Source: an uncultured bacterium (GTDB taxonomy: Bacteria; Omnitrophota; Omnitrophia; Omnitrophales; Aquincolibacteriaceae). From it: a DNA stretch of 64,000 nt. A program made the position numbers and the translations under genes. The notes under the pieces were generated by a model that had not been told where the DNA came from, did no database searches, and saw only the letters and a list, made by a program, of their open reading frames with translations. The stretch covers positions 40,518-104,517 of the forward strand of contig CAYLPP010000002.1 of assembly GCA_964385615.1 (NCBI GenBank), read 5' to 3'. Of this stretch, positions 11,379 to 64,000 are shown in pieces. Numbering within the stretch: position 1 is the stretch's first letter; every line of letters begins with the position of its first letter.

Positions 11379-11421
11379 GTGTATTTCTCATTTCGCTCAA
11401 TGCGAAGACATTGAGCATCCT

Positions 11422-16400: not shown

Positions 16401-16411
16401 CCGGGGGAAGA

Positions 16412-21725: not shown

Positions 21726-21748
21726 GCGATTTGGTTAGATAAACCCCG

Positions 21749-21780: not shown

Positions 21781-21785
21781 TGTTT

Positions 21786-24556: not shown

Positions 24557-24573
24557 TTTAGAGAAACCGCAGA

Positions 24574-25173
24574 TTAATTTTCGGACGGAGGAACGGAAAG
24601 TTTATTCTTTGTGTAGAGAATCCGGTGAACCGCGGTGGCATTGGTTCCGATCAGAAGAATGATCAGGCACAAAGGGCGCACCCAGCCGCCGAAAGCCGAA
24701 TAGACTCCCAGCACAATCAGCCGTTCCGGTCTTTCAAATACGCCGATCGTGCAATCGTCGATCATGTTTTCCGCCCGCGCTTTGGCGTAGCTGGTTACAA
24801 ACGCTCCCGCAATGATGCCGAGACAAACAGCAGTCCATCCCGCCTGCTGAAGATGAGCGTAATGAACGGCCAGACCGCCGAAAAGAAAAAGATCCGCGTA
24901 GCGGTCAACGGTAGAATCCAGGAACGCGCCGAATTTGGAGATTTTTCCGCTGTGGCGGGCTAAGGGACCGTCGAACATATCGCCAAGACAGGCAAATAGG
25001 AGAAGGATACCCCCCCAGAAGAAATGGCCGGAGGCATAAATCACACCGCTGGTCAGGCTGAGTGCCAGACCAGCGAGTGTGACGTGATTTGGGGAAATGC
25101 CCTTGCTGTCTAGAAAGATAGCGACTTGCTTCAGTCCGGACTCAAGATAAGGGTAGACGTGTTTTCTGAGCAC
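24574..25173 (-). CDS. CDP-alcohol phosphatidyltransferase family protein (candidate phosphatidylinositol-phosphate synthase or DIP-phosphate synthase)
   Basis: Signature D(x)2DG(x)2AR(x)8G(x)3D(x)3D is intact (DMFDGPLARHSGKISKFGAFLDSTVDRYAD) within a 199-aa polytopic membrane protein. Confidence 0.8.
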   Translation of the reverse strand: MLRKHVYPYLESGLKQVAIFLDSKGISPNHVTLAGLALSLTSGVIYASGHFFWGGILLLFACLGDMFDGPLARHSGKISKFGAFLDSTVDRYADLFLFGGLAVHYAHLQQAGWTAVCLGIIAGAFVTSYAKARAENMIDDCTIGVFERPERLIVLGVYSAFGGWVRPLCLIILLIGTNATAVHRILYTKNKLSVPPSEN

Positions 25174-25182
25174 GCCGTCTTC

Positions 25183-45705: not shown

Positions 45706-45965
45706 CGGCTTCCAGCGTGAAGCCAATTGTCTGAGGGGTGCTTGAAACCCTTGGTTTTGGCCTAAAAATCAGTCCTGTCTTTTTATAGCAATCTAGCGCA
45801 TTTCCGCATAACGGATAACGGCATTATTTTTTCTGTTTTGAAAAAGCGGGAATTTGCACCCGGTTTCTTGACTTGTCAGATAAGCCGTGTTACTTTTTTT
45901 CCGCCTTTCGGTTTTAAACCCCTTTTTCAGCAGTAAAAAAATATTCTTAAAAGGTGATACTTTTT

Positions 45966-51900: not shown

Positions 51901-54900
51901 CCGGCACCATTAAAGGTGACGCGCGTCTTCAGCTTTATCTGATCCCGCTCCTGATGACTCTTGATTCAAGGCATCCTGCTCCCGCGCCTGGAACCGTCAT
52001 CTATCTTTCGCTTACTAAAGTTAAGGAAGCAACTGCCAAGATGCGCTCCGAAGCGCGCGCGGAGTCAAAGGAATCTACTGAGAATTTTCCTCCTGCCTTT
52101 GACTCGTTTATTTGGCCGCAGCTCCCTCAGGAGGTCTCACCTTTTTGGAATCCCTCCGCGGCGGATGTCACTTTTGTAAATAATGGGGAATTCAAAGCTG
52201 TACTAGTCATTCCGGCGGCTGTGACCGTAAAATTAAAAACCGGCGGAAATACTGGGCCAACACTGGTGACGATTATTGAGGCGTCCTTGCGGAATGCCGG
52301 ATACGCTCCCGAAGATTACCAAATTAAGATAGAAAGGAAAGTGGATCACAAAGTAGAAATTTATTTTAAAAAACTGCTCGGTTCTTCCCGCTCAGAAGCG
52401 CGGATGGTGACGGCTAACGATGGTTGGCTGGATTCTGATGAAAAGACGCGCTTAATGAATGGGTTTTTTCAGAATTCAAAAATTGATCCTGCCTGGCATT
52501 TCATTACCGGCGTCGACAATATGCAGGTTGTGGCAACGCTTCACGAACCTGACCGCCCCGCGGGGCCTGTAGAAGCTGATCCTCGGTTTTTTTGGCCGCA
52601 TGTCTCTAGTGCTTTATGGACACTTCAATGGCTCGCCAATAATAAAAATGAATTTCTTAAAGACCGTGGAGACGCGGCTCTATTGACTTCGCTGGAGGAT
52701 TGGCTGACAGGTTGGAAGCAGATTCTTCTTCGCGTTATCAGCAATGAAGGGGAACGTGATAACGCGCCTCAGTTTCAGAAAGGAATTTTAGAAGCATACC
52801 TTTATCTCCTGGATACTCCTGAGGAAATTCGCCAGCGGGTGGATTGGTTCGGCGATGTGCTGGAAGTGACTAATGGCATTGTGTCGGATATTTTTGAAGG
52901 GTCCGTTTCAATGGGCGCTTTTGTCGCGCCGAATGCGGCCCTGAGCATGCCGGATGCGGCTTATTTTTACCGTTGGGTGGTACGCGGGAAAGTGGATCTC
53001 CAGGTTTCGGATAATTTAATTGCCGATGTCCCGGTTAACGTGGCCCGGTTGGCTGAAGCGACAAAAAAGCGGGCAGATCAGCTGAAGATTGCTCTTTTAA
53101 TTCGCCCCAGGCATTTCGCGGTGATTGAAGAATTGATCAAAGCGGGCATCCAGATTCCTGAAAGCGACAAAGCCCGGTATGATGCCATTTTAGCGATCGG
53201 AGATGAAGCTGTTCAAAAAGCCGAAAAGCTTAAATTTTTCGGCGGGCTTGAGAAGCAATCCAAAGAAAAAGGTTATTTGGTCTGGGGGAACATTGTACTG
53301 GCTGCTGACGGAGATATGATGCCTGCTTTTGCGGTTATGACTGAAGATCTTGATGCTGTGATCGCGGCCGGAGGCCCGAATGAAGTTCTCTTGGGCGCTA
53401 TGATTGCCAAGATTTTCAACGGTTCATTTAAAGGGCGCCTGGTGCCCGCGGATGCTTTGAAAGAAGAAAATAGAACCGCGAATATTACGACTGCGAAATG
53501 GAATTCGGCGGAACGTCAGAAACTTCTGGAGCATAACCTGTTTCCTCCTGATGTTACTGCGAATGAGAGGCTGGCGATTCTTAAAGAAGTGGCTGAAAAT
53601 CCTTACGCATTGAATAAAAATCTGACGGAAGCTCAGCGCCATGTCGATTATGTCTGGACTCAAGATGAAGCTGTTCCCGGTAATGACGGTGTTTTTTACG
53701 CGGCGACCGCTAAAATGTCCCCTGTCGGCAGTCCCTGGGTTAAAGCTCTTAAGGGAATCGAGTTTGATGCTGCTTCAGGAAATGTTTCAGTCTATCAAAT
53801 TCGAGCTGGTCTTTCAGGGGATGTCCGCGTTTTTAGAGTTATTTTTAAAACCGTTATTGCGGGCTTGCGCGATCAGATTCACGCGATTGAATTTGGGAGT
53901 GAATATGATGCCCGCGCTTCCCGGGTTTTTCAGGAGAGTGAATCTGAAAAACTCTATGATCTTTACTACGCGCTAGGCCGCGCGCTTTTCCGTTTCCGGC
54001 AGTATGAAGAAGCTTTTACGGCTTTTGAAGAAGCTCGGCGCAATGCCTCAGGGAATCCCGGCCGTTTGGCGAAAATCGAAGCTGTGATTGCCCATTACGC
54101 AGGATTGCAGACTTTGGTTCGGGAAAAGGATTCTCCTAATGAAAAAGCCCTGCCGTATTTTATCGAAGCCTCTAAGACGGATCATCAGGATTTAGAAGGT
54201 TCAGCGGGAAGCCGTGTGTTGGCCCAACTCCTTCTTAAATTCTTAGCTGAAAAAATCGAGAAAGAGTTAAAGAAAAACTTTGATTCTGAAGCCAAGGATA
54301 AAGCGCTTGGGTTTCTTCAGCAAAGGACCTTGATTGCCCCTGAAACCGCGGATGAGAACCGGGAAATTCGTGATCGCATTTCAAATATTACGGCAAAATC
54401 CGAGGTTCGATCAGTAGTTCAGGTTCAGACGGTTGAACTTCCCAAAGCGACTGAACCGCTGGAGATTTTCAGGAAACTTCCCGGGCTTGAAAATGCGGGG
54501 GTTTCTGAAGCTCAGGATTTCATCAGAAAGTATCATTTGCGCGCCACCGTTCAATATGAGGGCGGATCGGAGCTGGAGCTTGACGATCTTGATCGGTCTT
54601 TGGAGAAAAACTGGAAAATTGGAGGAGACCGGAAAGCTGCTGTCCGTTTGCGCTACTATCCGTTTCCCCAGGATAAGCAGACTCTGCGGAACGCCATTGC
54701 CTCGCTCGCGGGAGTGCTTGTTTACGCGCTTGAAAAGGACTATCCGGATCAGGAAATCGAAGCCTATAAAATCGCGCGTGTTCCCACGGATGAAGAGCCT
54801 GTTACGGTGCAGGAACTCAAGACATTTCTCGATAATTTGAGTGTTAACCTGATTTACAAACCCGAGAACACGGATTTAGATCAGTCTGAAGGGTGGTATT

Positions 54901-55925
54901 TTCAGATCGCCAGAAAAAAAGAAGATTTGCTTTACGGAGAAGTTGAAATCGGGCCTTTTCTGGGAACTCTTTCCGAAGATGGGTCTGCCCGTCTTGATCA
55001 GGGTGATTTGATGCTTGTTTATGAAATTCTGGATGCCCGGAATGTTCTGGATGAAAAAGAAGTAACAGAAGTCGGCCCTGAAATTCTCAGAATCTTCAAA
55101 AATGTTTCTCGTTCTGAGTCTAGGGTTCAAACTGAACCTCTCAAGGTAAATACGCGGTTCCTTACCCCTTCTCTCGAAGCTCAAGGCCGTACGGCTGAAG
55201 ATCTTTTCGCGGTCGCGGAAACTTCAACTCAGCGTGTTTTTGCCCAGCCGGATATTGACCTCGCGGGACCTGATTTTATCCGGGTTCAGTACGGGTGGGA
55301 CGGCGCGCAGACACTGCCCTTGAGCTCTGAAATTAAAACGGCAGGAAAAGTTTCTCAGGGAACTCCTAATACCGCTCAGTACGGAACCGCCCGCACGGTT
55401 GTGCTTCGCGGAGACACGGGAATTACAGTGGAAGACTTGCAGGCTATGGATCTTCAGCCTGGAAGCCGTGTGATTGTCGTGGATGAAATTGGCGGCCCGT
55501 CATTTCTCTGGAACCGTTACGCCAGCATGAAGCTTCCGAATAATGTACGGATTGAACGCCGGAGTGTTCTGGACGCTCTTGCTTATAATGAAATCAAAAA
55601 AGTTTTTGCTGAAAACCCGGCCAGCGTTCCGGTTCTGATTTTACCAGTCGGTACGCCCGATCCTTTGCTGGAGTCTTATCAGACCACGGCTGAACGTAAA
55701 GGTCTCGTGATCGCGTCTCCGCGCACCGCGGATGCCCGCCGTGCTATGGCTTGGGTGGTCCGAATGGAAGCTGATAAACTGCGCCAGCAGATTCCCGACG
55801 GCCTGACTTTCCGTTTCCAGTCTGACGCGCTTTCGCCGACCAGTGTTCAGCCCGGCGCTGAAAACCGGTTCGCTAAAGTCATGCTGGCCGCGGTCAGCAC
55901 CCAGCGTTTCCAGACCGCCGCGTAA
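45966..55925 (+). CDS. giant multidomain protein (3,319 aa): signal peptide, one internal TM, degenerate CofD/YvcK-like region, HAD-IIB phosphatase-like domain, TPR-like helices, otherwise uncharacterised
   Basis: Uninterrupted ORF of about 10 kb. ATG at 45966 with RBS AAAGGTGA 8 nt upstream. N-terminal signal LPLRAVSLTVALLFSVQTLLSAAPA. TM helix LIAGAAVLFLGLGITGGIY near nt 47990-48050. IVFFRRAQSG...IVLSATDDGLG near nt 48990-49110 resembles YvcK/CofD IVVIGGGTG...IVTVADDGGSSG. HAD motifs FDVDMTL (motif I), VSIISGNS (motif II), KNVALEN lysine and FGDEF (motif IV) lie near nt 50590-51450. Confidence 0.75.
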   Translation: MSGNSKSRFSLPLRAVSLTVALLFSVQTLLSAAPAVNPQQKVFQNFQISEELGRVEEAFLPETADSSKALIVHIRDAHAQPEAQRKIQAILNSLAVNKKIELVAAEAAFGPIDASVLKLLPDDKSNRAMAEDMADSGEVNGVELFALQNDHGIELRGVEDPELYRQSLQIFASLKKSKQSIKDVLSAYRTAVESLEARLLNPELQQYLIKKRSWEQNHDISLDYFRYLQTLARKKLNLDLSGAGFQFEWPQMVRLIKTAEMDSALDRERAVSETLQLAETFEKSAGLGRDYIAPGLRQLVSRDSNGDFRLWMLQHPAAGVQSIRHFYEALWRESKKQKISLLQYPEFLALGGSLILRDEIDAPALFSEAEKLERLIEKEIVRTEEEKKLFAISSDLALAGRLLSLELTRADYPMYLQRAGEFEPEVFRRRVQDFSGRKQKLPLLSGDLLEKASEFYRLSVLRDQTLIEKTLAAASGRPAALVAGGFHSEGLLEILKAKNIPYISITPKINNLADESLYEKAMIGSGNPAFAQLSVNTLGVQFLAQPARVYQKVSGSPSQTARLLRGLLVSGVRAMSSERRGSLEIYQTVTDAISSHPDIFGNNARVILREQVPVQLRAGKTAVDVLYLDIPSLGLKKELTLRNGRMFEVSPLVRFSDEQPAENVQARSETRISRKKLIAGAAVLFLGLGITGGIYEFNRRAEIARQEAIDASRIRYFKIDVPVRYTPNYDRPQTYSTAELQKIQKETIVKVSAVLGVNFDSGQKAHVKALADFYGLTHTGTVSPVMTDGDVEWWVKFSSNRRKISHWTQDQENEALVLQFFWRWQTREVMEHYGVVSKHQGDISAISEASDAARSLEPAVDALFIKATRNHQEIPAFIRDRKLRSEARVTRSPEELYVISEIVRLVSVLDSKGLRAKIHGRNLLEFGSHGEALVSFIQRYSVLKNLDDIRRVLAWRLDLESKSGLPLNGMDASKSAEKTRLIYESIFDPAAFLKHWAERKPNEPHPLNIVFFRRAQSGAEITNLLKSLPNVNVQIVLSATDDGLGWYEAARQFRATGVPGAGKALLDLAQDFHAKDFLAFRLSGKGKGDDEFTRDFTALVLKLHAPHDANLVLSDEMKIIFQKAMRMNIEKRRAMADYLETFLEEVQRRHRENADFTFRLKNIPLRSLVLLGASLKFKSDGELTDYWQKALDATAVLLDVKAGNRVIFPTRERQHLLAVREDGTVYFSETGVNRYGYEPPFLGYTTDSSFLGLWLVSETVDEAFIESIKSKLSAEGIELGDIPEAALPAEISRENRREVIATTKKVQPDQAARVAQLFSEMSTTAVSADSVNRVPVSLEADAAIRSADVVFYTTAAFETNVGAALIVPGVEDAIKQNRKAVKIALAEINGGNEKNLPLLALKNIERYLSHSPMGDLTHVQDHADFVLAGLLGSQDPNKAVPYLIETEQAAGGLVSAVALDARTDETHGFYSSPVLSEAMIALVGLKAADFRVSDSGGLMPDAKAVDSVSRENNQAGLFRKKKPVAALIREIKTNFPRIVKEGAFAFDVDMTLLPKNSDELTDYPELAYLLMRMLREGVTVSIISGNSFEEQGARILEAIKREMKDDFSALDNLVFYVSGGATRFNINKNGEVVPDAEYNRSHELNLDILKSGVNQALRELAAKNFGLNPDQLAAFISETQKKNGSHVTFPWKDGGVWEPEWLTPAEVKARKEKKQPLAFPWVEVRGDFITPGSIVASITVKPMQVFEYEGNKIDLRDEFQAHLRTLMFENQGSFVIRSGGTSSTDITTSTANKNVALENLIASRGLDAKWVFYFGDEFYQRQVAVSSGTVTQLGNDEAIALDPNLSAFRTLAVNSTDMKGASAKTIWIGRSPQATLEFLESVVINPAEISKRSEVRINFSRDDQAPQEFSAEVGIEGSSKAVYAEKDPESRAVYVWVKEKGTQGGVSQALLLPDLAGNDVSAVDAARTLADYLAGWVKAGTIKGDARLQLYLIPLLMTLDSRHPAPAPGTVIYLSLTKVKEATAKMRSEARAESKESTENFPPAFDSFIWPQLPQEVSPFWNPSAADVTFVNNGEFKAVLVIPAAVTVKLKTGGNTGPTLVTIIEASLRNAGYAPEDYQIKIERKVDHKVEIYFKKLLGSSRSEARMVTANDGWLDSDEKTRLMNGFFQNSKIDPAWHFITGVDNMQVVATLHEPDRPAGPVEADPRFFWPHVSSALWTLQWLANNKNEFLKDRGDAALLTSLEDWLTGWKQILLRVISNEGERDNAPQFQKGILEAYLYLLDTPEEIRQRVDWFGDVLEVTNGIVSDIFEGSVSMGAFVAPNAALSMPDAAYFYRWVVRGKVDLQVSDNLIADVPVNVARLAEATKKRADQLKIALLIRPRHFAVIEELIKAGIQIPESDKARYDAILAIGDEAVQKAEKLKFFGGLEKQSKEKGYLVWGNIVLAADGDMMPAFAVMTEDLDAVIAAGGPNEVLLGAMIAKIFNGSFKGRLVPADALKEENRTANITTAKWNSAERQKLLEHNLFPPDVTANERLAILKEVAENPYALNKNLTEAQRHVDYVWTQDEAVPGNDGVFYAATAKMSPVGSPWVKALKGIEFDAASGNVSVYQIRAGLSGDVRVFRVIFKTVIAGLRDQIHAIEFGSEYDARASRVFQESESEKLYDLYYALGRALFRFRQYEEAFTAFEEARRNASGNPGRLAKIEAVIAHYAGLQTLVREKDSPNEKALPYFIEASKTDHQDLEGSAGSRVLAQLLLKFLAEKIEKELKKNFDSEAKDKALGFLQQRTLIAPETADENREIRDRISNITAKSEVRSVVQVQTVELPKATEPLEIFRKLPGLENAGVSEAQDFIRKYHLRATVQYEGGSELELDDLDRSLEKNWKIGGDRKAAVRLRYYPFPQDKQTLRNAIASLAGVLVYALEKDYPDQEIEAYKIARVPTDEEPVTVQELKTFLDNLSVNLIYKPENTDLDQSEGWYFQIARKKEDLLYGEVEIGPFLGTLSEDGSARLDQGDLMLVYEILDARNVLDEKEVTEVGPEILRIFKNVSRSESRVQTEPLKVNTRFLTPSLEAQGRTAEDLFAVAETSTQRVFAQPDIDLAGPDFIRVQYGWDGAQTLPLSSEIKTAGKVSQGTPNTAQYGTARTVVLRGDTGITVEDLQAMDLQPGSRVIVVDEIGGPSFLWNRYASMKLPNNVRIERRSVLDALAYNEIKKVFAENPASVPVLILPVGTPDPLLESYQTTAERKGLVIASPRTADARRAMAWVVRMEADKLRQQIPDGLTFRFQSDALSPTSVQPGAENRFAKVMLAAVSTQRFQTAA

Positions 55926-55974
55926 TCCGCATTTTCTTGACAGGCTTTCGGCGGTTTGGCTACACTGCCATCCT

Positions 55975-56706
55975 ATGCCCGCGCGACAGATTCTTGTTTT
56001 GGATAAAAAGGAAAGCCAGTGGCCCGCGTTTCTAAGCGAATGCTTTGAAGAAACGCCGTCAAAGGTTCATATTTTTGACAACCCTTCGCAGGCCGCTTTA
56101 TGGACCACTCAGAATAAAGCCGATTTTTGTTTTGTCCGGCCTGAACTTCTTTCCATGAGTCTTGCCCAGAAGCTCAAGTTCCTTCGTGAAAGCGTTAAAT
56201 CCTTCCGCTTGTTCGGTCTTGATTCCATGAATAAATCTCTGCCATTCGATGACTTTGTCGATGGGTACACCTCCACGGTCAGCGCGTTTCAGCGCAAACT
56301 TTCCCAGCATTTGGAATTTTCTGAAAAGATCCAAGTTTTGATTGTGGATGATGAGCAGGATATCGGGCACATGATTCAGGACTTTTTGCTCGACCGCGCC
56401 CACCCGTCGTTTCTGGCGGATTACACTGATGACGGGCATAAGGCGCTGGAGTGGCTTGCAAAGAAAAGGTATGACGTGGTTGTGCTGGACGTGAAAATGC
56501 CGATCCTGGACGGACGGGAAATTTACCGGGGAATCGTCGAGAAAAAGATTAAAACCGCGGTGATCGTTTTTTTTGACGCCATTTCCGGCGATGAAATTTC
56601 CGACATTCACAAGATTGGCCGTCCGGCCATTGTGGATAAAGGTTCGAGTCAAAGCAGTATGCCTGAAATGCTGGCGCTGATTAAAAAAATGGCCTACTTC
56701 GGATGA
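55975..56706 (+). CDS. response regulator with a degenerate N-terminal pseudo-receiver and a canonical C-terminal receiver domain, no output domain
   Basis: The second half has IQVLIVDDEQDIG, phospho-acceptor context VVVLDVKMPILDG and downstream T/K positions. The first ~110 aa are REC-like in length and hydrophobic pattern but lack the acidic pocket. First ATG is at 55975; the supplied ORF start at 55843 overlaps the giant gene. Confidence 0.55.
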   Translation: MPARQILVLDKKESQWPAFLSECFEETPSKVHIFDNPSQAALWTTQNKADFCFVRPELLSMSLAQKLKFLRESVKSFRLFGLDSMNKSLPFDDFVDGYTSTVSAFQRKLSQHLEFSEKIQVLIVDDEQDIGHMIQDFLLDRAHPSFLADYTDDGHKALEWLAKKRYDVVVLDVKMPILDGREIYRGIVEKKIKTAVIVFFDAISGDEISDIHKIGRPAIVDKGSSQSSMPEMLALIKKMAYFG

Positions 56707-57791
56707 ACCGCCGGATCGGAGTTTTCTTTTTTCTTGTTTTGTTTTCCGGATGCGCGTTCGCGGTGCGCTGGCCGGCCTTCGCGGTTAAAAGCAATAAATC
56801 AGAAAAAGTTTTCCGCGGTGTTTTTCACGTCCACTCCTTTTATTCTCATGATTCCAAAGCGGACTTTTCTGACTTGATTGAAACGGCCCGCAAGGCCAAC
56901 TTAGACTTTGTTGTTGTTACGGACCACAACAACACGCTGGCCAAGGAAGCGTATGACCGGAGCAGTCTTCCGCGCGATCCGCTTCTGGTTTTCGGGAATG
57001 AAGTTTCTTCCAGCGAAGGGCATATCATCATGCTGGGGGTTTATGAAGAACCGCCTCCGGACAGGGAATCCGGCCAGGAGGTCATTGACTGGGCGCATGA
57101 AAAAGGCGGTTATGCCATTATTCCGCACCCCTTCAGTCCGAAAAGCGACTGGGACAATTGGAATGTTCAGAACTTTGACGGCATTGAGATCTACAATTTC
57201 TTTCACTCTATCTATGACAGTTCGCTGATTGAATTCGGGCTGGAGTTCGCTTTTCTTCCTCCGCATTATTTTTTAAAGGCTCTCGACCGGCCGATGGCGA
57301 AGACCCTGCCTCTTTGGGATGAACGGCTCGAAAAAGGCCGGCTGGCCGGACTTGGCGGTACGGATGCTCACACTCATTTTAAATTTGGAAATTTTTCTCC
57401 CGAAAATCTTCTGCTGTCCTATCAGGCCGTCAACGTTTTCGCGCTGGCGGATTCTTTGGAACCGGAAAAAATTGTTGAAGCCTTGGGTAAAGGGCGGAGC
57501 TTTACGGCTTTTGAGACTGAAGGGGATGCTGGGCAATTTTCTTTCACCGCGGAAGCGGGCGGGAACAAATACCGGATGGGGGACACGATTCCCGTCGGCA
57601 GTGAAATCACTTTCAGAATACAGACGCCTTTGCCGGCTCGTATCCTTTTGATTCATCACGGAAATGTTATCCTTGAACATGAGGGTGTTGAAGCGGTTTT
57701 TAAAACCGGGGAGGCCGGCGCTTACCGTGTGGAAGTTCAGAAAAACTCGAAACCTTGGATTATGGCGAACCCTATTTATGCGGAGGGCTAA
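56703..57791 (+). CDS. PHP-domain metal-dependent phosphoesterase, predicted lipoprotein
   Basis: PHP motif FHVHSFYSHDSKADFSDLIETARKANLDFVVVTDHN plus later His/Asp clusters (HIIMLG, IIPHPF, GGTDAHTH). N-terminal signal with a lipobox-like LFSGC. Overlaps the upstream stop as ATGA. Confidence 0.7.
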   Translation: MNRRIGVFFFLVLFSGCAFAVRWPAFAVKSNKSEKVFRGVFHVHSFYSHDSKADFSDLIETARKANLDFVVVTDHNNTLAKEAYDRSSLPRDPLLVFGNEVSSSEGHIIMLGVYEEPPPDRESGQEVIDWAHEKGGYAIIPHPFSPKSDWDNWNVQNFDGIEIYNFFHSIYDSSLIEFGLEFAFLPPHYFLKALDRPMAKTLPLWDERLEKGRLAGLGGTDAHTHFKFGNFSPENLLLSYQAVNVFALADSLEPEKIVEALGKGRSFTAFETEGDAGQFSFTAEAGGNKYRMGDTIPVGSEITFRIQTPLPARILLIHHGNVILEHEGVEAVFKTGEAGAYRVEVQKNSKPWIMANPIYAEG

Positions 57792-58824
57792 AGCCCTTCT
57801 TATTTTTTTACCCGTCTTTTTTTTCTCCGGGTGCACAGCCTGGCAGCCTTTTTCTCAAAAAGAACCCGCTTCGAAACCTTCTTTTTACGAGCACTACTAC
57901 GATTATCCCGCGCCGGATCTGAACGCTAAAATTATCCGTGAACAAGTAACAAAGCATTACCTTCTGCGGACGGTGGAGTTCCCGCTGAATCTTCCCAGCG
58001 GGCTCGAAGTGAAAAATCTCCCCGAATTCCGCCGGCGGAATGAAGAGCTTTTCAAGACCGATCAAAAAACCGCGAATGATGCCGCGCTTCGCTACACCGT
58101 GCGGATTGATTATTACCTTCCCAGAAACCTCAAGCCCGGCGAGAAACGGCCGGCGGTTTTGATTTCTCCCATTTTGGGCGGGAATATGGTGGTGGATCAT
58201 TTCGCGCGGTATTACGCGGGCCGAGGGTTTGCCGCGGCGATTGTTTACCGTAAACGCCTTTTCTGGGAAGAAGGCAATGATGACATCCGGCAATTTGAAG
58301 ATTATATGCGCGTGTCTGTCATCCGTCTTCGCGAAGCGCTGGACTGGCTCGAAGTTCAGCCGGAGGTAGACGCTTCACGAATCGGAAGTTTTGGTGTCAG
58401 CTACGGGGCGATTTTACACACCATCCTGGCGGCAGTTGAACCCCGCATTCGTTATCACGTGCTGGCCATGCCCGCGGGACCGATCTCTGAAGTGATCGCG
58501 CATTGCCCCGATAAGGCCGTGACCAAACTCATGACTTACGCGCGGGAGCATTACGGCTGGTCCGCTGAGAAAGTGGAAAAGGATTTGAGTGGAGTCATCA
58601 AAACCGATCCGCTTCTGCTGGCTCCGCAGGTACCTCGCGAAAAAGTGGAAGTCTATGCGGCTCTCTTTGACCGGGTGGTGGGAGCGGGGCGGTCCTTTCG
58701 AGTTTGGCGAGCGCTGGGCAAACCTAAATTGAGGGTCATGCCTTTCGGTCATTACGGCGGGATTTCCGTGTTTCCTCTGCTTCAAACCCAGTCTTATCTG
58801 GCGCTTAAAAAGCATCTGAAGTAA
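57778..58824 (+). CDS. alpha/beta-hydrolase (GXSXG esterase/dienelactone-hydrolase-like), predicted lipoprotein
   Basis: Signal peptide MRRAKALLIFLPVFFFSGC with a lipobox-like FSGC. Nucleophile elbow GVSYG. A late Asp and the PFGHYGG histidine fit an alpha/beta hydrolase triad. The start overlaps the PHP gene end by 14 nt. Confidence 0.6.
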   Translation: MRRAKALLIFLPVFFFSGCTAWQPFSQKEPASKPSFYEHYYDYPAPDLNAKIIREQVTKHYLLRTVEFPLNLPSGLEVKNLPEFRRRNEELFKTDQKTANDAALRYTVRIDYYLPRNLKPGEKRPAVLISPILGGNMVVDHFARYYAGRGFAAAIVYRKRLFWEEGNDDIRQFEDYMRVSVIRLREALDWLEVQPEVDASRIGSFGVSYGAILHTILAAVEPRIRYHVLAMPAGPISEVIAHCPDKAVTKLMTYAREHYGWSAEKVEKDLSGVIKTDPLLLAPQVPREKVEVYAALFDRVVGAGRSFRVWRALGKPKLRVMPFGHYGGISVFPLLQTQSYLALKKHLK

Positions 58825-61230
58825 TTATTTTTTTAAGTTTTCGAAATCAAAATGATGATACTCACTGTCTGCCGCTCTCGAACCGTCGTCGGCGTTGGCA
58901 ATCCAGAATTCCGGAAAAGCAAAAACCGCGCTTTGAATATTTGATCCCGGAGCCAGTTCTTTGGCGAATTCCATGACGGTTTTCGGGGTGATTTCTCCGT
59001 AGTATTTCTCGGCAAGCCGGCCGTGCTTCTGATAACGGATTTCAAACGCGCTTCCGGTGGGCGGTTCCAGGCCGGGCTGGTCAGGTTTGCCTCCGGAAGC
59101 TATTTGAAGATTCCGGATTTCAGGATCGAGCGCGGGATCTCCCCGGAACACCGCGCAGGGCACTCGAAGCGCGTAGCCCGCTTTTTCATTCGGGTCATTG
59201 TCGCCGAAGACCGCGAAATGAGAATGCGTGGTTTCAAAAACGAAAGCTTTTCTTTCTTCCGCGCTTGCCGCGACGTAATTATAACCGCGTGTGCGTGCCG
59301 CGGTTTCAAAGATTGTTTTTGCCGATTCAAGATTTGAAGCGTTCTCCAACGCCTCCTTAATTAAAAACGGCATAGGTGTTCCTTCCAGGGATTCATCTTT
59401 CGAAACCGCGCCGATCTGCCCTAGAGAAATTCCCGCGTCATTCATGCCGGAAAGAACTCCGGAGAAACCCGCGTATCCAAGATTGACGTAAGCTTGCCTG
59501 CCTGGCTTTTCAATGAATTTAACTGCGGCATCGCGGTGAATGCCGATTCCGCGGTTCCAGTCCAGGTTACGCAGAGCAATCATCCGGCCGTCTTTTGTCG
59601 CCTTGCCCCAGTAAGCGCCGTTAGTGCACCAGGAAGGATAAACTTCGGGAAGCGCGTGAAGGCGTTCCATCGTTTTCAGCGGAATACCGGCACCGTCGGC
59701 CAGGCCTTTGATTTGCAAAAAGTCCTCATAAGAAATAAACGGCTCCATTTTTTTCCAGGCGCGGTCCATGGAAAAGTGGATCAGCCATTTTCCGGCCAGG
59801 GGAACGGGCAATTGCTTTTTCAGGTAAGTCTCAATGCCTTCGGAAGCTGAATGGATTTCTTTTTTAAGAAGCCGGCCTTCTTCATAGCCAATGTGATAGG
59901 CATCGCCCCGGAGTTTGATGACGGGCAGACCCTGGTCATAGCTTAAAGAGCCTTCTGGCCGGAGTTGTTTTTTTTCCGTTTCGGTCAGAAGTTGTTCGGT
60001 TTGTTCGATGGCGGTTTCCTGCGTCCACCGGCTCATGCCGGGCCCGTAAAAACTGACCCGGGCCTCGTATTGACCGCGGTCGCGGTAGTAACGGGGCGAA
60101 ACAACATAGGCGATGTAATCGTTGGCGTATCCGGCAATCAGAGGAGTCAACCCCCGGGCCCGAAGGTGATTTTCAATTTCATGGCCGGGCCCTGAAGTCA
60201 GTTCTCCAGGAAAAGCGAAGATGAGAAAATTACCCATTCGAAGGGATTGAAAATAACTTTCACGCGCGAAGACACGCCCGCCCAGCCAGGAAGGTGTCCG
60301 CATTTTTCCGAGCCGGGCTTTAACCGGCGGGAGTTTTTTCTTTTCGAGAACACTTTGCCAGAGTCCGTCGACAGACGCCGGATGAAAAGAAGCTTTTTCG
60401 AATCGCTCGAGAAGCTGACGGCCGTAAGCCAGCATTTTTTCGTGACGGTCCTCAAGAGAAGGCGCGCGCGGTCTGAGATCACCGGCCGCGCCGTTGATCA
60501 GCAGCGCGGTTGATCCGGGAAACTGTTTTTCAACGCCGGAACATAAAACTCCGGGAAAATCGGCTGAGAATTTCAGATTTCCCGCCGAAAGCAGGGTGGG
60601 GTGAGCCGCTATGAAGATTAAATGCCCCGTCACTTCGCCTTGTTTTGTTTTGAAGCGGAGAATCCGCATTTTCCGGGATTCTTTGAGCGCGGGGTCCATT
60701 CTGTTTTCAACCAAGTCATCAATTTGAATTTCCGCGCTTTCTGTTTCCGCCGGACTCAAGTTCCGCAGGCTTTCAACCGCGGAGTCCGCGATTTTCTGAG
60801 ACAGCTGTTTAAAAACGTCCGCCCGTTTTTTACCGAGAATGAATTTTTCCCAGAACCGGCTCCCGTAAGCGCCGGCGCCTGAATGGCTGTGTGTCGCGGC
60901 CAGCATCAGCTGACGGTCTTTGAGAGGAAATTTTTTTCTTATCTGAAGAAGAACTTCTTCGCGCAATTCCGCGTCCACAAGAACTTGGTCAGCTGAAATA
61001 AAGACGAATGTTTCTTCGCCGTTCCGCAGGGCCAGCGCGCGGGCGTAAAGGGGGTCGAGAATTCCTTCGGAAGAATGGCCGTGACGTTTGCCGTATCCGC
61101 CCAACGGTGTTCCTATGGGCGGAGTGATTTCCTGCTTTCCGGATCCGGCCTCGATATTTTGCGCTCGAACGGGCTGAACGAATCCTGAAACTGCGCAAAT
61201 CCAAAGGAGAAAAAAGAAGGTTCGTTTCAT
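58825..61230 (-). CDS. secreted fusion protein: neutral/alkaline ceramidase-like N-terminal domain plus C-terminal Ntn-hydrolase (peptidase C45 / acyl-CoA:6-APA acyltransferase-like) domain
   Basis: Signal peptide MKRTFFFLLWICAVSGFVQPVRA with RBS GAGGGAAG. ITPPIGTPLGGYGKRHGHSSEGILDPLYARALAL and AATHSHSGAG match the neutral ceramidase N-terminal core. The C-terminal SWCTNGAYWGKATKDGRMIALRNLDW...GMNDAGISLG resembles the C45/AAT Ntn-hydrolase nucleophile-Cys region. Start taken at the internal ATG at 61230 rather than 61254. Confidence 0.6.
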   Translation of the reverse strand: MKRTFFFLLWICAVSGFVQPVRAQNIEAGSGKQEITPPIGTPLGGYGKRHGHSSEGILDPLYARALALRNGEETFVFISADQVLVDAELREEVLLQIRKKFPLKDRQLMLAATHSHSGAGAYGSRFWEKFILGKKRADVFKQLSQKIADSAVESLRNLSPAETESAEIQIDDLVENRMDPALKESRKMRILRFKTKQGEVTGHLIFIAAHPTLLSAGNLKFSADFPGVLCSGVEKQFPGSTALLINGAAGDLRPRAPSLEDRHEKMLAYGRQLLERFEKASFHPASVDGLWQSVLEKKKLPPVKARLGKMRTPSWLGGRVFARESYFQSLRMGNFLIFAFPGELTSGPGHEIENHLRARGLTPLIAGYANDYIAYVVSPRYYRDRGQYEARVSFYGPGMSRWTQETAIEQTEQLLTETEKKQLRPEGSLSYDQGLPVIKLRGDAYHIGYEEGRLLKKEIHSASEGIETYLKKQLPVPLAGKWLIHFSMDRAWKKMEPFISYEDFLQIKGLADGAGIPLKTMERLHALPEVYPSWCTNGAYWGKATKDGRMIALRNLDWNRGIGIHRDAAVKFIEKPGRQAYVNLGYAGFSGVLSGMNDAGISLGQIGAVSKDESLEGTPMPFLIKEALENASNLESAKTIFETAARTRGYNYVAASAEERKAFVFETTHSHFAVFGDNDPNEKAGYALRVPCAVFRGDPALDPEIRNLQIASGGKPDQPGLEPPTGSAFEIRYQKHGRLAEKYYGEITPKTVMEFAKELAPGSNIQSAVFAFPEFWIANADDGSRAADSEYHHFDFENLKK

Positions 61231-61323
61231 GGCTTCCCTCTGAAAGTATGCCATAATTTAAACAAACGCTTAAGGTTCTTCCGGGTCGCACCGAAACACC
61301 CCATAGAGAAAAGGCGGGAGATT

Positions 61324-61686
61324 ATGGCTAAAAAAATTCTTCTGGTTGATGACGAAATCGAGATTCGCGGTTTCATGCAGGACTATTTTGAAGACCGCGA
61401 ATTCCAAGTCTCTATCGCTTCTGACGGCGCCGAGGGCCTGGCCCTTTTTGAGAAAGATCAGTTTGACCTGATTGTCTGCGATATGCTGATGCCGAAAATG
61501 ATCGGGATTGAATTTCTCAGGCGGGTGAAAGAGAAAAAGCCCGATCAGCGGGTCATTATGATGACCGGTGTTAAGGAAGAATCCATGATGGAAAAGGCCA
61601 AGGCTTTGGGCTGTCTCCATTATTTGACCAAGCCGGTGAAGCTTTCCGATATCGAAGCCCGCGTTAACGAGTGTTTCGCATCTTAG
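61324..61686 (+). CDS. single-domain response regulator (CheY-like receiver)
   Basis: KILLVDDE, phospho-acceptor LIVCDMLMPKM, downstream T (MMTG) and K (LTKP) positions. 120 aa. Confidence 0.8.
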   Translation: MAKKILLVDDEIEIRGFMQDYFEDREFQVSIASDGAEGLALFEKDQFDLIVCDMLMPKMIGIEFLRRVKEKKPDQRVIMMTGVKEESMMEKAKALGCLHYLTKPVKLSDIEARVNECFAS

Positions 61687-61798
61687 CAGGTTGGCATCGG
61701 TGTACTAGACAGGACACGGTTTCATTAGCCGTGCCTGGCTGTACCAATGCGTTGGCATTGGTAAAAAAAACTACGAACTCCAGCCTTGTTATCGTAAA

Positions 61799-63733
61799 AT
61801 GATGCCCATGTTCCCCAGGAAACTTTCAAAACGGGCTATTTCTCTGTTTTGTATTTTCAACCTTTGCATATCCTTTTTACTGCCCGTTCCGGCCTTCGCT
61901 GAAAAAGCCCCGCTCACCGATGACGAACTTCTCGACCTGATTCAGCGCAAAAGCCTGGATTATTTTATCAATGAGAGAAGCGCTGTTACGGGGCTGGTGC
62001 GCGACCGGGCCAATAATTCCAGGGAAGGAATCAATAATTCGCCCGCGAGTATCGCCGCGACCGGTTTCGCTCTGGCGGTTTACGCTTCCGCGGTTTCCAG
62101 AAACTGGCTTGATTACGGAACTGCCAAAGAAATGACCCGCAAAACCCTGCAGTTTTTTTTGGAGAAAGCCCCGCAGGAACATGGATTTTTCTATCACTTT
62201 ATGGATATGGAGACGGGACAAAGGTTCCGGGACTCCGAAGTGTCGCCGATTGATACCGCGCTTCTTTTGGCTGGAGCGATGTTTGCCGCGGAATATTATG
62301 AAGAGCCGGATGTCCGTGAGCTGGTGAATAAGATTTATGACCGCGTTGACTGGGAGTGGATGCTTCACGGCGGGAAAACCTTCGCCATGGCCTGGAGCCC
62401 GGAGAGCGGTTTTCAGAAAAACCGGTGGGACACTTACAATGAATCGATGGTTATGTATCTTCAGGCGATTGGTTCTTCCGCCCATCCAATTCCCGCGGAG
62501 AGCTGGAAAGCCATCAAACGGCCCGCGGGAAGTTACAAGAATTACCGTTTGATTTTTCAACCGCCGCTCTTCACGCATCAGTATTCTCACATCTTCGTTG
62601 ATTTCCGCAATAAACATGACGGTTTTGCAGACTATTTCAGGAATTCGACCGATGCTTCTCTGGCTAATCGCGCTTTCTGCATGGAACACGCGGACCGCTT
62701 TCCAGGGTATGGGCCGGATAGCTGGGGTTTGACGGCCTCTGACGGGCCTACCGGATATGCCGCCTACGGCGCGGCTCCGGGGCCGGCGCGCCACGATGGT
62801 ACGATTGCTCCGACCGGCTGCGGAAGCTCGATTGTTTTCACGCCTAAAGAATCACTGGCCTGCTTGAGGAATTTTTATGAAAACGAGGACGGTCTTTGGG
62901 GCCGTTACGGGTTCGCGGACGCTTTTAATAAAGGAAAGAAGTGGGTGGCTCCGGATGTGATAGGGATTGATCAGGGAGCCTTATTTCTAATGATTGAGAA
63001 TTACCGAAGCGCTTTGATCTGGAAGATGATGTCCAAGAGTCTTCCGATCAACCGTGCGATGGAGGCTGTTGGTTTTAAGGAGGGAACTATGGAATTGCCC
63101 TGGCCAGAGCCTCCTTCTGAAAAAGCGGTTTATATTCAGCAGGGAATCGAAGTGAACGCGCTTTTAAGCGACTGGCCTAACGGGAAGCCCCTGGAAATGG
63201 ATGAATCCTTTATTGAGACCGGGAGTTTTAAGGAAGGCAGGGCCCCCAAGGTTCAGATTCGTTTCGGCTGGAACCGGGCGGCGCTCTTCTTCTATGCCAA
63301 AGTGGCGGATCCGGACTTGGTTGCCAGAAAAACCGGAAGAAATATATGGATGGATGATATGATTGAGCTTTATATTGATCCCCAAGGTGACGGGCTGGAC
63401 TGGGGCCAGCGCGGTGATTTTCAGATTGGATTCCGGCCCGATCCGGAGACCGGTGAAGTGCTGACCTGGTCCTGGTTTGGAGACGGCGGAGACCCGCAGA
63501 AGGAATCGGCCGCTTTGGCGCGCAGTTTTTCCGATCAGTCCGGATATTTAGTTGAAGGAGCGGTCAGCTGGGAATATTTGGGAATTAAACCGGAACCTGG
63601 GATGGTGGTCCGGCTTTCGGCTGCCGTGCATGATATCGACTCTGACCGCAGTGACGGCAAGCTCCAATGGTTTTTTAGAAATGAAGAAAAGAGCGGGCAT
63701 TACGTTCTTGGGAAACTTGTGCTGGAAGCATGA
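61799..63733 (+). CDS. secreted six-hairpin glycoside-hydrolase-like protein (glucoamylase/DUF3131-like catalytic domain) with C-terminal CBM9-like carbohydrate-binding domain
   Basis: Signal peptide. The central region (GFALAVYA...PIDTALLLAGAMFAAEYY...DTYNESMVMYLQAIGS) resembles the putative glucoamylase/GH144-type alpha/alpha-toroid families. The C-terminal WMDDMIELYIDPQGDG is typical of CBM9/DOMON-like modules. Confidence 0.45.
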   Translation: MMPMFPRKLSKRAISLFCIFNLCISFLLPVPAFAEKAPLTDDELLDLIQRKSLDYFINERSAVTGLVRDRANNSREGINNSPASIAATGFALAVYASAVSRNWLDYGTAKEMTRKTLQFFLEKAPQEHGFFYHFMDMETGQRFRDSEVSPIDTALLLAGAMFAAEYYEEPDVRELVNKIYDRVDWEWMLHGGKTFAMAWSPESGFQKNRWDTYNESMVMYLQAIGSSAHPIPAESWKAIKRPAGSYKNYRLIFQPPLFTHQYSHIFVDFRNKHDGFADYFRNSTDASLANRAFCMEHADRFPGYGPDSWGLTASDGPTGYAAYGAAPGPARHDGTIAPTGCGSSIVFTPKESLACLRNFYENEDGLWGRYGFADAFNKGKKWVAPDVIGIDQGALFLMIENYRSALIWKMMSKSLPINRAMEAVGFKEGTMELPWPEPPSEKAVYIQQGIEVNALLSDWPNGKPLEMDESFIETGSFKEGRAPKVQIRFGWNRAALFFYAKVADPDLVARKTGRNIWMDDMIELYIDPQGDGLDWGQRGDFQIGFRPDPETGEVLTWSWFGDGGDPQKESAALARSFSDQSGYLVEGAVSWEYLGIKPEPGMVVRLSAAVHDIDSDRSDGKLQWFFRNEEKSGHYVLGKLVLEA

Positions 63734-64000
63734 AGAAAAAAGTTTCTAAAACAAATTCTTTTTTAGGGGCTATCGTGCGGGAAATCCGCATGGAGAAGAA
63801 CATGACAGGCGCGGAGCTTTGCCGGAAGGCTCCGAAACTGGATCCGCGCACACTGACCGCGCTTGAAAAAGGCCGTATTATCAATCCGTCGCTGGAAACA
63901 CTGGACGCGGTGGCCGCAGGGCTGGGTCTGAAAGTCAGTGATCTTTTTATTCGGCGTGAACAGCGCCTGATGACCGTGTTTCAGTCTGGAACCCAAAAAG
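63730..64000 (+). CDS. XRE-family helix-turn-helix transcriptional regulator (partial, continues beyond window)
   Basis: MKKKVSKTNSFLGAIVREIRMEKNMTGAELCRKAPKLDPRTLTALEKGRIINPSLETLDAVAAGLGLKVSDLF matches the Cro/C1 HTH pattern. The ATG overlaps the upstream stop (ATGA). No stop is reached before the window end. Confidence 0.5.
   Translation, partial: MKKKVSKTNSFLGAIVREIRMEKNMTGAELCRKAPKLDPRTLTALEKGRIINPSLETLDAVAAGLGLKVSDLFIRREQRLMTVFQSGTQK

Follow-up and report, generated by a model that had tools for sequence, protein, structure and literature searches.

A secreted ceramidase-like/C45 fusion protein, an alpha/beta-hydrolase lipoprotein and a PHP metallohydrolase lipoprotein, encoded side by side in a Candidatus Omnitrophota genome, make up a genuine module of exported hydrolases that is conserved in evolution. 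We analysed a window of 64,000 nucleotides from this genome and put at about even the prospect that its hydrolase block consists of two adjacent, separable units, of which the core module deconstructs an acylated envelope amphiphile. The block had been predicted to hold seven genes with tight or overlapping junctions, and all seven were found in place, with domain calls that were essentially right by Pfam and NCBIfam:

55975-56706, plus strand: RR2, a response regulator of 243 aa with a Pfam REC match on its C-terminal half
56703-57791, plus strand: PHP metallohydrolase lipoprotein, CehA/McbA type (NCBIfam, lipobox)
57778-58824, plus strand: alpha/beta-hydrolase lipoprotein, serine esterase/peptidase type (triad, lipobox)
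58825-61254, minus strand: secreted Ceramidase_alk + C45/AAT fusion (Pfam, NCBIfam)
61324-61686, plus strand: CheY-like receiver (Pfam, 5.3e-28)
61799-63733, plus strand: secreted GH144-family (PF10091) protein with CBM9 (Pfam, signal peptide)
63730-64000, plus strand: XRE-family HTH regulator, 5' part only, the gene being cut by the window end

Computed overlaps and short gaps bear out the compact arrangement. RR2 overlaps the PHP gene by 4 nt, and the PHP gene overlaps that of the alpha/beta hydrolase (true start 57778, not 57781) by 14 nt; the alpha/beta-hydrolase and fusion genes converge with zero gap, the fusion and CheY genes diverge across 69 nt, 112 nt separate CheY from GH144, and GH144 overlaps XRE by 4 nt, with ATGA at the GH144 stop.

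The fusion protein, which carries a type-I signal peptide and probably starts at M9 (61230), divides as follows:

59965-61161, minus strand: neutral-ceramidase-like Zn amidase part, aa 32-430
58828-59922, minus strand: C45 Cys-Ntn hydrolase part with its pro-segment, aa 445-809
59626-59628: codon of C543, at the predicted self-cleavage site W542/C543 of the C45 part

Pfam recognised both halves (Ceramidase_alk, 2.8e-27; C45/AAT, 2.8e-08), the NCBIfam C45_proenzyme model (NF040521) scored 125 bits against a cut-off of 85, and a PDB profile search matched the neutral ceramidase CerN (2zws) at 6e-33. In an AlphaFold2 model of the protein (pLDDT 85.8), Foldseek placed the ceramidase part on 2zws (1.6e-24) and the Ntn part on IAT (2x1c; 7.6e-15, TMt 0.76), followed by acid ceramidase (2e-11) and NAAA (6e-11); the beta-subunits of NAAA and acid ceramidase also gave faint profile matches to the C45 part. 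IAT is the fungal acyl-CoA:isopenicillin N acyltransferase, and some C45 enzymes, IAT included, are non-lipid amidases or acyltransferases. Residues H122, H124, R185, H218, E/D351, Y383, Y396 and C543 are kept in 21 homologues, and this conservation of the Zn, catalytic and C45 Cys residues indicates that the protein is putatively competent for catalysis. About 50 further homologues show the same fusion, which is also present in a lineage at 28% identity, while in a high-GC clade the two parts are adjacent genes that overlap by 4 nt and each encode a signal peptide. Judged from its sequence, the protein is thus two unrelated, putative ceramidase-like amidases joined in one exported polypeptide. 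The original prediction of a ceramidase-like/Ntn fusion with N-acyl-lipid amidase chemistry agrees with these results, since the modelled folds, those of neutral ceramidase, acid ceramidase and NAAA, point to that chemistry.

Both accessory hydrolases of the core are predicted lipoproteins. The PHP protein carries an N-terminal lipobox (LFSGC) whose Cys is kept in homologues, and consists of a PHP barrel and a C-terminal beta-sandwich. It exceeds the cut-off of the CehA/McbA model NF038032 (6e-35, 121 bits against 80), and its metal ligands H42, H44, H75, E100, H107, H142, D221 and H223 are kept in 40 homologues, features by which it is classed as a putative trinuclear metallohydrolase of the PHP superfamily, CehA/McbA type. 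The top PDB fold match of its AlphaFold2 model (pLDDT 92.7) was the two-domain PHP-like phosphoesterase 3e38 (1.7e-12). The named CehA/McbA members cleave a carbamate pesticide, carbaryl, and not a phosphoester. Hence, of the phosphoesterase lipoprotein that had been proposed, the PHP fold and the lipobox stand, whereas its phosphoesterase activity is an assumption drawn from the fold. The alpha/beta hydrolase has the lipobox FFSGC, likewise kept in homologues, and a triad of S208 (in the nucleophile elbow GVSYG), D298 and H325 that is invariant in 40 homologues. Its Pfam matches (DLH, S9, S15 and BAAT_C) are weak and each under its cut-off, its PDB sequence matches are esterases, and it weakly resembles the quorum-quenching lactonase UilS (3.9e-5).

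Recurrence of this gene order in relatives, which the original prediction had proposed as a check, was assessed in a comparison set of 77 related loci, and the fusion, alpha/beta-hydrolase and PHP genes co-localise repeatedly. Among the 32 Omnitrophota loci that have Cer and C45 and a downstream flank of 5 kb or more, an alpha/beta hydrolase lies downstream of Cer-C45 in 30 and a PHP gene nearby in 22, in the same convergent arrangement; PHP is absent in about a third of loci (for example L001, L002 and L020). In 6-7 Nitrospirota loci the genes are co-directional, in the order PHP, Cer, an unknown lipoprotein and alpha/beta hydrolase. The linkage holds down to about 30-35% protein identity, where the flanking genes are wholly different. 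Distant PHP homologues show no linkage with ceramidase genes, which is confined to the present subfamily. In the high-GC clade, 1.5-8.5 kb with housekeeping genes such as IspH and UPF0047 parts Cer/C45 from the alpha/beta hydrolase and PHP, so part of the core linkage could be inherited synteny. A subtilase gene is inserted in the module at L001, and TldD/PmbA genes lie near the module in the high-GC clade. Gene content, export signals (the signal peptide of the fusion and the lipoboxes conserved in homologues of both lipoproteins, as had been expected), intact catalytic residues, the fused or split state of Cer and C45, and conserved linkage are direct observations on the core.

The remaining genes join the core in close relatives only, and the proposal that all seven act as one system does not hold. 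The enzyme of this second group has two domains:

61901-63112, plus strand: GH144 catalytic domain, aa ~35-438 (PF10091, 1.4e-71)
63215-63724, plus strand: CBM9-like domain, aa 473-642 (CBM9_1, 2.7e-12)

Secretion and the CBM9-like tail (PDB match to the CBM9 1i82, 6e-9) were called correctly, but the glucoamylase label was not: it is merely the Pfam name of PF10091, and the protein is a member of the GH144 beta-1,2-glucanase family. Its catalytic domain matches XcSGL (8xul, 3e-67) and CpSGL (5gzh, 8e-55), and E215, F258 and Y320 align with CpSGL E211, F268 and Y330. GH144 is specific for beta-1,2-glucan and belongs to a clan defined by these Glu, Phe and Tyr residues (PMC12102758). A homologue 65% identical to the XRE regulator (L005, 7047-7673) matches HTH_3 (1.4e-9), with OEP, HlyD and AcrB genes after it, the operon order in relatives being CheY-GH144-XRE-OEP-MFP-RND. 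GH144, XRE and CheY occur in only 7-9 close relatives, and at L001, L004 and L009 inserted genes lie between them and Cer-C45. GH144 therefore belongs to an operon separate from the hydrolase core.

The two receivers are similarly restricted. RR2, which at 10 loci adjoins the gene for PHP or for the alpha/beta hydrolase and is confined to close relatives, consists of:

55975-56319, plus strand: N-terminal pseudo-receiver, aa 1-115
56323-56670, plus strand: receiver that looks phosphorylatable, aa 117-232

RR2 had been described as two receivers with no output domain. An output domain is indeed lacking, but only the C-terminal half is a conventional receiver (Response_reg on aa 121-232, 4.6e-16; D125, D126, D172 and K222 invariant). 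The N-terminal half gave no match in the Pfam search; profile-profile alignment (hhalign) relates it to the adjoining CheY family (95% probability, E 2.6e-8), yet it carries R55 at the phospho-Asp position and has no acidic pair. CheY, with D9, D10, D53 and K103 invariant, is a canonical single-domain receiver whose gene opens the second transcription unit; it adjoins GH144 in 7 relatives. Both receivers are orphan within the window, where a search of all ORFs of at least 150 aa found no histidine kinase domain, but at L001 and L004 a CHASE2 histidine kinase lies at the corresponding position, beside CheY/GH144.

Overall, our best inference for the substrate of the core is an N-/O-acylated, possibly phosphorylated envelope amphiphile, and the core probably strips acyl and phosphate groups off an envelope lipid. 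As we infer substrate class and reaction order, the first unit would be an extracytoplasmic module of the Sec-secreted fusion, whose C45 part is predicted to mature through self-cleavage before Cys543, and two membrane-anchored lipoproteins, active in the periplasm or on the membrane surface. Acyl groups would be attached to the target through amide and ester bonds, and its head group would probably be a phosphate or another ester; sphingolipid-like, lipid-A-like and aminolipid-type molecules, own or scavenged, are candidates. Removal of N-acyl chains would fall to the two amidase domains, that of O-acyl chains to the Ser-Asp-His alpha/beta hydrolase, and that of a phospho- or carbamate-type ester to the PHP enzyme. 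The second, lineage-restricted unit would comprise CheY-GH144/CBM9-XRE, followed in relatives by a TolC-like/MFP/RND pump, and its product would be a secreted beta-1,2-glucan hydrolase rather than a glycolipid enzyme. RR2 and CheY may be local regulators gained in the present clade, with a kinase partner likely of the CHASE2 type found at the equivalent position in relatives.

The original prediction instead united the seven genes and a giant gene of the window in one inositol-phosphoceramide or glycolipid system, with GH144 as its glycosidase and the inositol genes as a link, which we regard as highly improbable. Contiguous, tightly joined genes for an amidase, an esterase, a phosphoesterase-fold enzyme and a glycosidase would suit it, as would the ceramidase-type folds of the fusion, and the window does encode myo-inositol-1-phosphate synthase (MIPS) and a CDP-alcohol phosphatidyltransferase (24574-26292, minus strand) together with an IMPase-family gene. 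However, the MIPS and transferase genes lie 30 kb from the hydrolase module; MIPS falls within 10 kb of the module at 0 of the 77 loci, and a CDP-alcohol transferase homologue lies near it at just one (L010). The giant gene adjoins the core in the closest clade only and is missing at L011 and all distant loci, the window holds no sphingolipid-synthesis gene, and we found no support for inositol-phosphoceramide as the substrate. GH144, XRE and CheY accompany the core in close relatives only, in their operon with an RND pump. The prediction was to fail if its hydrolases had well-established, unrelated substrates, and for the glycosidase this is what we found because the GH144 substrate is beta-1,2-glucan and the defining residues are kept here (PMC12102758).

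We consider it unlikely that the core acts on non-lipids such as peptides, peptidoglycan-derived amides, small N-acyl compounds or signals (for instance N-acyl-homoserine lactones), or carbamates and esters of xenobiotic origin. The presence of IAT among C45 members, the faint likeness of the alpha/beta hydrolase to S9/S15 peptidases, dienelactone hydrolase and UilS, the naming of the PHP subfamily after carbaryl hydrolases, and the subtilase and TldD/PmbA neighbours are consistent with such substrates. On the other hand, lipid amidases are fold neighbours of both fusion domains, with acid ceramidase and NAAA ranking directly after IAT; both accessory enzymes are membrane-anchored; every peptidase-like match is under its curated cut-off; and the TldD/PmbA, IspH and UPF0047 genes seem to reflect synteny particular to the clade, not partnership. 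That the hydrolases share no function, their adjacency being a gene order inherited in a poorly sampled phylum, appears quite improbable: one phylum supplies most loci, housekeeping genes intervene in the high-GC clade and PHP is lost from several loci, but the three families are also linked in Nitrospirota in another order and orientation, fusion or translational coupling joins Cer to C45, and the linkage outlasts complete change of the flanks. We thus favour an envelope amphiphile as the target of the core.

Our literature search found no paper describing this hydrolase module, an uncharacterised cluster that combines already known enzyme families in a novel way. Among its closest counterparts is plcH (PA0844)-cerN (PA0845) of Pseudomonas aeruginosa, which encodes a secreted sphingomyelinase/phospholipase C and a neutral ceramidase that act sequentially on an exogenous amide-linked lipid, one which the organism itself need not synthesise (PMC5150637). 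Here too a secreted Zn amidase of neutral-ceramidase fold is encoded near a candidate phosphoester-cleaving enzyme, and the Zn and catalytic residues of CerN are conserved. Unlike CerN, the ceramidase part is ~400 aa long, lacks the ceramidase C-terminal domain, scores far under the NCBIfam neutral-ceramidase equivalog cut-off (40 bits against 1200) and shares its polypeptide with a C45 Ntn hydrolase. In place of PlcH, the candidate phosphoesterase is an unrelated lipoprotein of PHP fold, and the module has an extra alpha/beta-hydrolase lipoprotein and no SphR-type regulator. With acid ceramidase (ASAH1), NAAA and IAT the Ntn domain shares the alpha-beta-beta-alpha fold, the presence of a pro-segment and, where cleavage is predicted, an invariant Cys; by sequence it belongs to C45 (NF040521) and not, like acid ceramidase and NAAA, to C89, and unlike all three it comes from a bacterium, is exported through Sec and forms one chain with another, unrelated putative amidase.

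The GH144 protein aligns over its whole catalytic domain with CpSGL (Chitinophaga) and XcSGL (Xanthomonas) (E 1e-55 to 1e-67), keeps the clan-defining residues and is secreted, but differs in its C-terminal CBM9-like module; compared with known GH144 enzymes, its operon in relatives holds CheY, XRE and an RND pump and no beta-1,2-glucan uptake or phosphorylase genes. Finally, the PHP protein resembles the CehA/McbA family in its above-cut-off score and full His/Asp/Glu metal ligand set, and the structural-genomics protein BVU_3505 (3e38) in its barrel and beta-sandwich; in contrast to both, it is a lipoprotein linked to ceramidase-like genes.

ORF listing and profile searches confirmed seven genes between position 55975 and the window end, with the tight or overlapping junctions of the original prediction.

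Genes from position 55975 to the window end
55975-56706, + strand: RR2, a pseudo-receiver plus receiver protein of 243 aa; the REC profile matches the C-terminal half only (4.6e-16)
56703-57791, + strand: PHP, a metallohydrolase lipoprotein (NCBIfam CehA/McbA metallohydrolase NF038032, 121.2 bits against a cut-off of 80)
57778-58824, + strand: alpha/beta-hydrolase lipoprotein, which in fact starts with the ATG at 57778
58825-61254, - strand: Cer-C45, an 809-aa fusion of a neutral-ceramidase-like Zn amidase part (Cer; Ceramidase_alk, 2.8e-27) and a Cys-Ntn hydrolase part (C45; C45/AAT NF040521, 125.3 bits against 85)
61324-61686, + strand: CheY
61799-63733, + strand: PF10091 'Glycoamylase' plus CBM9 protein (GH144)
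From 63730: XRE-type HTH gene, its 3' part beyond the window end

RR2 overlaps PHP by 4 nt and PHP overlaps the alpha/beta-hydrolase gene by 14 nt; the latter and Cer-C45 are convergent with a gap of 0, Cer-C45 and CheY are divergent with 69 nt between them, and CheY lies 112 nt from the GH144 gene, which in turn overlaps the XRE gene by 4 nt. The database copy of the fusion protein has 801 aa. A scan of the region yielded 5 promoter-like sites, a count not above that in shuffled sequence (4.7±2.3), and 23 terminator-like sites (15.1±3.9 in shuffled sequence), so that both counts were near expectation. A sigma-70-like promoter match (10/12; 55937-55966, +) is located within the 49-nt gap between the stop codon of the giant gene and the start of RR2, which suggests that RR2, PHP and the alpha/beta hydrolase could be transcribed from this site independently of the giant gene.

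Contigs were scanned with an alignment of fusion-protein homologues; the resulting 77 loci, with flanks of up to 10 kb, were queried with all window proteins and their ORFs clustered. The homologues belonged almost exclusively to metagenome-assembled genomes of Candidatus Omnitrophota, and ~50 of them have both domains. Where a locus encoded Cer and C45 and continued for at least 5 kb downstream (32 loci), the alpha/beta hydrolase was present in 30 and PHP in 22, and the gene order was constant: PHP and the alpha/beta hydrolase in one orientation, followed by Cer-C45 in the other. In a high-GC Omnitrophota clade Cer and C45 are separate genes that overlap by 4 nt and each have their own signal peptide, so that in Rosetta-stone terms the window gene joins two partners that are both secreted. 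The fusion was also found in a lineage with 28% identity (P0061), in which the Cys and the RNLDW motif are kept. Outside the Omnitrophota, 6-7 Nitrospirota loci (Manganitrophaceae and others) carry PHP, Cer, a 450-aa lipoprotein gene and the alpha/beta hydrolase in this order on a single strand and without C45. None of the core neighbours occurred at the other Cer-only loci (~15, from several phyla), and no ceramidase neighbour was found for distant PHP homologues (≤33% identity). Co-localisation of the seven genes held for the core (Cer-C45, alpha/beta hydrolase and PHP), with linkage conserved across two phyla, whereas RR2, CheY, GH144 and XRE accompany the core only in close relatives.

Several of these loci contained further genes. 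The Nitrospirota lipoprotein, conserved at ~450-490 aa in the interval from Cer to the alpha/beta hydrolase (L056 12925-14397, L057 5020-6375 and L060 2993-4348), had no Pfam match and no similarity to C45 by tblastn, and loci L056 and L057 also have a second, degenerate ceramidase-like paralogue upstream. Locus L001 has a 938-aa S8 subtilase gene between Cer-C45 and the alpha/beta hydrolase (12591-15407) and lacks the PHP gene. The CCA-adding enzyme, UPF0047, IspH, DUF4900 and TldD/PmbA genes of the high-GC clade were considered as partners and judged to reflect synteny only; the CCA-adding enzyme, UPF0047, IspH and TldD/PmbA genes are housekeeping genes. On a Bdellovibrionales contig (L082 4529-7194) the gene for a distant PHP homologue overlaps a PMT_2/ArnT-like glycosyltransferase gene by 4 nt, a possible sign that PHP proteins of this branch act on a lipid-linked or envelope substrate.

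In the Cer part of the fusion, H122, H124, R185, H218, Y383 and Y396 were invariant across 21 homologues, and position 351 was Glu in 18 and Asp in 3. The conserved Zn ligands and catalytic residues align to H97, H99, H204, E411, Y448 and Y460 of PaCD, and Cer possesses both the Zn-ligand set (His, His, Glu, Tyr) and the catalytic His, Arg and Tyr of PaCD and human nCDase. The full-length ceramidase architecture was not found: the fusion protein scored 40.4 bits against the cut-off of 1200 for the neutral-ceramidase equivalog NF041649, it had no match to the C-terminal ceramidase domain, and the catalytic part stops near aa 430, where the C45 domain follows. The latter exceeded the curated cut-offs of PF03417 (34.2 bits against 23.2) and NF040521. 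Residue C543, invariant in the 21 homologues and in P0061, lies ~95 aa into the C45 profile match, which fits a nucleophile Cys after a pro-segment of ~100 aa; the fusion protein is predicted to cleave itself before this residue, between W542 and C543. An AlphaFold model of the fusion (pLDDT 85.8) matched neutral ceramidase 2zws in Foldseek (1.6e-24), and the C-terminal domain matched, in this order, isopenicillin N acyltransferase (IAT; 2x1c, 7.6e-15, TMt 0.76), then acid ceramidase and N-acylethanolamine acid amidase (NAAA) (~1e-11), with penicillin V and bile-salt hydrolases ranking after these. A type-I signal peptide was assigned by rule. The predicted secreted ceramidase-like/Ntn-hydrolase fusion was thus borne out by profile for both domains, by rule for the signal peptide and by model for the folds.

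The PHP protein conserves the metal ligands H42, H44, H75, E100, H107, H142, D221 and H223, and profile score, motif and fold all agree with its family assignment. Its model (pLDDT 92.7) consists of a PHP barrel and a beta-sandwich, with 3e38, 2anu and RNase AM as the best fold matches and the uncharacterised Bacteroides protein 3e38 as the closest; a sequence search of the PDB returned no informative match. The named members of the CehA/McbA family act on a carbamate ester, whereas phosphoesterase activity had been assumed in the original prediction. In the alpha/beta hydrolase the triad S208 (GVSYG), D298 and H325 was invariant in 40 of 40 homologues. Its Pfam matches all scored below their curated cut-offs (DLH 17.7 against 21, S9 16.5 against 22.6, S15 19.8 against 23 and BAAT_C 20 against 20.9), and a PDB sequence search retrieved generic esterases only. 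Lipoboxes are present at both N-termini (LFSGC in PHP and FFSGC in the alpha/beta hydrolase), and nearly all homologues of the two proteins have a hydrophobic stretch and, after it, a Cys with G, A or S just before it. The lipobox calls were made by rule and by eye rather than with a dedicated predictor; on this basis the lipobox Cys in the window proteins and their homologues agrees with the proposed localisation of both as lipoproteins. With catalytic residues, metal ligands and export signals conserved, the core enzymes look active and exported.

The remaining genes of the block have a narrower distribution. RR2 adjoins PHP or the alpha/beta hydrolase in 10 close relatives only. Its N-terminal half has a receiver fold (hhalign against CheY, 95%, E 2.6e-8) but has neither the acidic pair nor the phospho-Asp, and is a pseudo-receiver since R55 occupies the Asp position, whereas the C-terminal half keeps the receiver residues D125, D126, D172 and K222, as CheY does with D9, D10, D53 and K103. 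In 7-9 close relatives CheY, GH144 and XRE are situated upstream of Cer-C45, with inserted genes between Cer-C45 and the three in L001, L004 and L009. The receivers had been described as orphans, and indeed HisKA and HATPase_c domains were absent from all window ORFs of at least 150 aa; however, a CHASE2-HisKA-HATPase kinase gene lies between CheY/GH144 and Cer-C45 in two relatives (L001 3870-6011 and L004 7846-9864), so the receivers are orphan only locally. In place of the kinase the window encodes a CHASE2-GGDEF protein (41272-43041, +). The pairing of CHASE2 with GGDEF here and with HisKA/HATPase in the relatives looks like a swap of output domains in a protein that may serve the local receivers as their sensor.

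The PF10091 protein scored 241 bits against a cut-off of 27, carries a type-I signal peptide by rule, and matched characterised GH144 endo-beta-1,2-glucanases and a sophorohydrolase in the PDB (8xul, 3e-67; 5gzh, 8e-55; 5z06). The beta-1,2-glucanase clan (GH-S) is defined by E211, F268 and Y330 of CpSGL (PMC12102758), and the window protein has E215, F258 and Y320 at the aligned positions. Judged by these alignments, it joins a CBM9-like module to a beta-1,2-glucan enzyme and is not a glycolipid glycosidase. The original prediction, which had named a 'glucoamylase-like' glycosidase and had accepted well-established unrelated substrates as grounds for refutation, fails here on profile, PDB homologues and clan residues. 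A beta-1,2-glucan utilisation locus (with GH94 phosphorylase and ABC importer) was considered for this gene and rejected, the genes downstream being OEP, HlyD and AcrB. Downstream of XRE, relatives have overlapping genes for a TolC-like OEP, a HlyD-type MFP and an AcrB-type RND protein (L005 26-7075), and an RND pump operon almost certainly lies beyond window position 64000. A secreted GH144 beta-1,2-glucanase and an RND efflux pump form an unusual combination in one operon.

Neither the giant gene nor the inositol genes could be retained as parts of the system. The giant gene (45954-55925, +) is an ORF of 3323 aa with GlpX-FBPase-like, CofD-like and HAD-like domains; a preprint on giant proteins of Omnitrophota mentions FBPase-like domains (10.1101/2023.11.21.568195). 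RR2 is immediately preceded by large ORFs in L001-L006 and L009, but these share with one another and with the window gene only a C-terminal region of ~250 aa at 25-30% identity, indicating very rapid divergence or replacement of the body of the gene. Locus L011 has the order dnaX-recR-RR2 with no giant gene between recR and RR2, and no giant-gene homologue stood beside the core at distant loci, which makes it a neighbour specific to one clade. The genes for myo-inositol-1-phosphate synthase (MIPS) and a small CDP-alcohol phosphatidyltransferase were confirmed at 24574-26292 (-). By tblastn, MIPS was within 10 kb of the module in 0 of 77 loci, and the transferase and its adjacent ORF gave one match in these loci, a CDP-alcohol transferase in L010; the proposed link to inositol-phospho-ceramide is accordingly not supported. 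Inositol phospholipids or inositol solutes may be among the products of this organism, without any link to the hydrolase block. The two genes are followed by one for a secreted 269-aa protein without Pfam match (23747-26292, -, for all three), and an inositol-monophosphatase-family gene lies 18 kb from them (5719-6519, -). The window also holds a compact TCA-cycle cluster (IDH, MDH, aconitase, SDH, citrate synthase and succinyl-CoA ligase) and a polyamine trio (pyruvoyl arginine decarboxylase, CN-hydrolase and agmatine deiminase), which jointly occupy 6597-18477 and 21180-23721.

Overall, the best-supported interpretation is a conserved extracytoplasmic hydrolase module of coupled amidases, a serine esterase and a PHP metallohydrolase, in which two amidase chemistries would be joined covalently or by translational coupling and the membrane-anchored esterase and metallohydrolase would serve as accessory enzymes. 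We infer that its substrate is an N-/O-acylated, probably phosphorylated amphiphile, because each amidase domain has lipid amidases as its fold neighbours and the two accessory enzymes carry lipid anchors. Against a lipid amphiphile speak the score of Cer, 40 bits where the neutral-ceramidase equivalog demands 1200, together with its missing C-terminal domain, the hydrolysis of a carbamate by the named members of the PHP subfamily, and the lack of PHP in about a third of the loci. A more far-reaching proposal, which we consider rather doubtful, is that Cer, fused to or obligatorily paired with the NAAA/acid-ceramidase-like Ntn domain, constitutes with dedicated esterase and PHP lipoproteins an unrecognised bacterial pathway for full extracytoplasmic breakdown of amide-linked membrane lipids (for example sphingolipids, lipid A or aminolipids), used by Omnitrophota of ultra-small size and possible host dependence and by some Nitrospirota for lipid harvest from other cells or for recycling of their own outer membrane.

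The original prediction is therefore partly supported: instead of a seven-gene system there is a core with four functions, without inositol or glycolipid link, and this core is, as far as gene linkage across two phyla and the fused and split genes can tell, better founded than had been proposed. The lipid model should be kept free of GH144, the XRE regulator and the inositol genes. If the core degrades amide-linked lipids, it would open to biochemistry, for the first time, the acquisition or recycling of membrane components by uncultured, ultra-small Omnitrophota, and would give both the widespread, unstudied ceramidase-like subfamily of ~430 aa and bacterial C45 enzymes a function. Given the conserved partners and the fused-versus-split pattern, the model is open to a direct test with four recombinant proteins. 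We found no publication on the module, nor on Omnitrophota with ceramidase or neutral ceramidase with PHP, and in the main Omnitrophota papers neither ceramidase nor PHP nor response regulators come up in this connection. Among known systems the nearest is plcH-cerN of P. aeruginosa, adjacent genes whose secreted phosphodiesterase and neutral ceramidase dismantle host sphingomyelin (PMC5150637); the window module uses different partner families and is a new assembly from known enzyme families.
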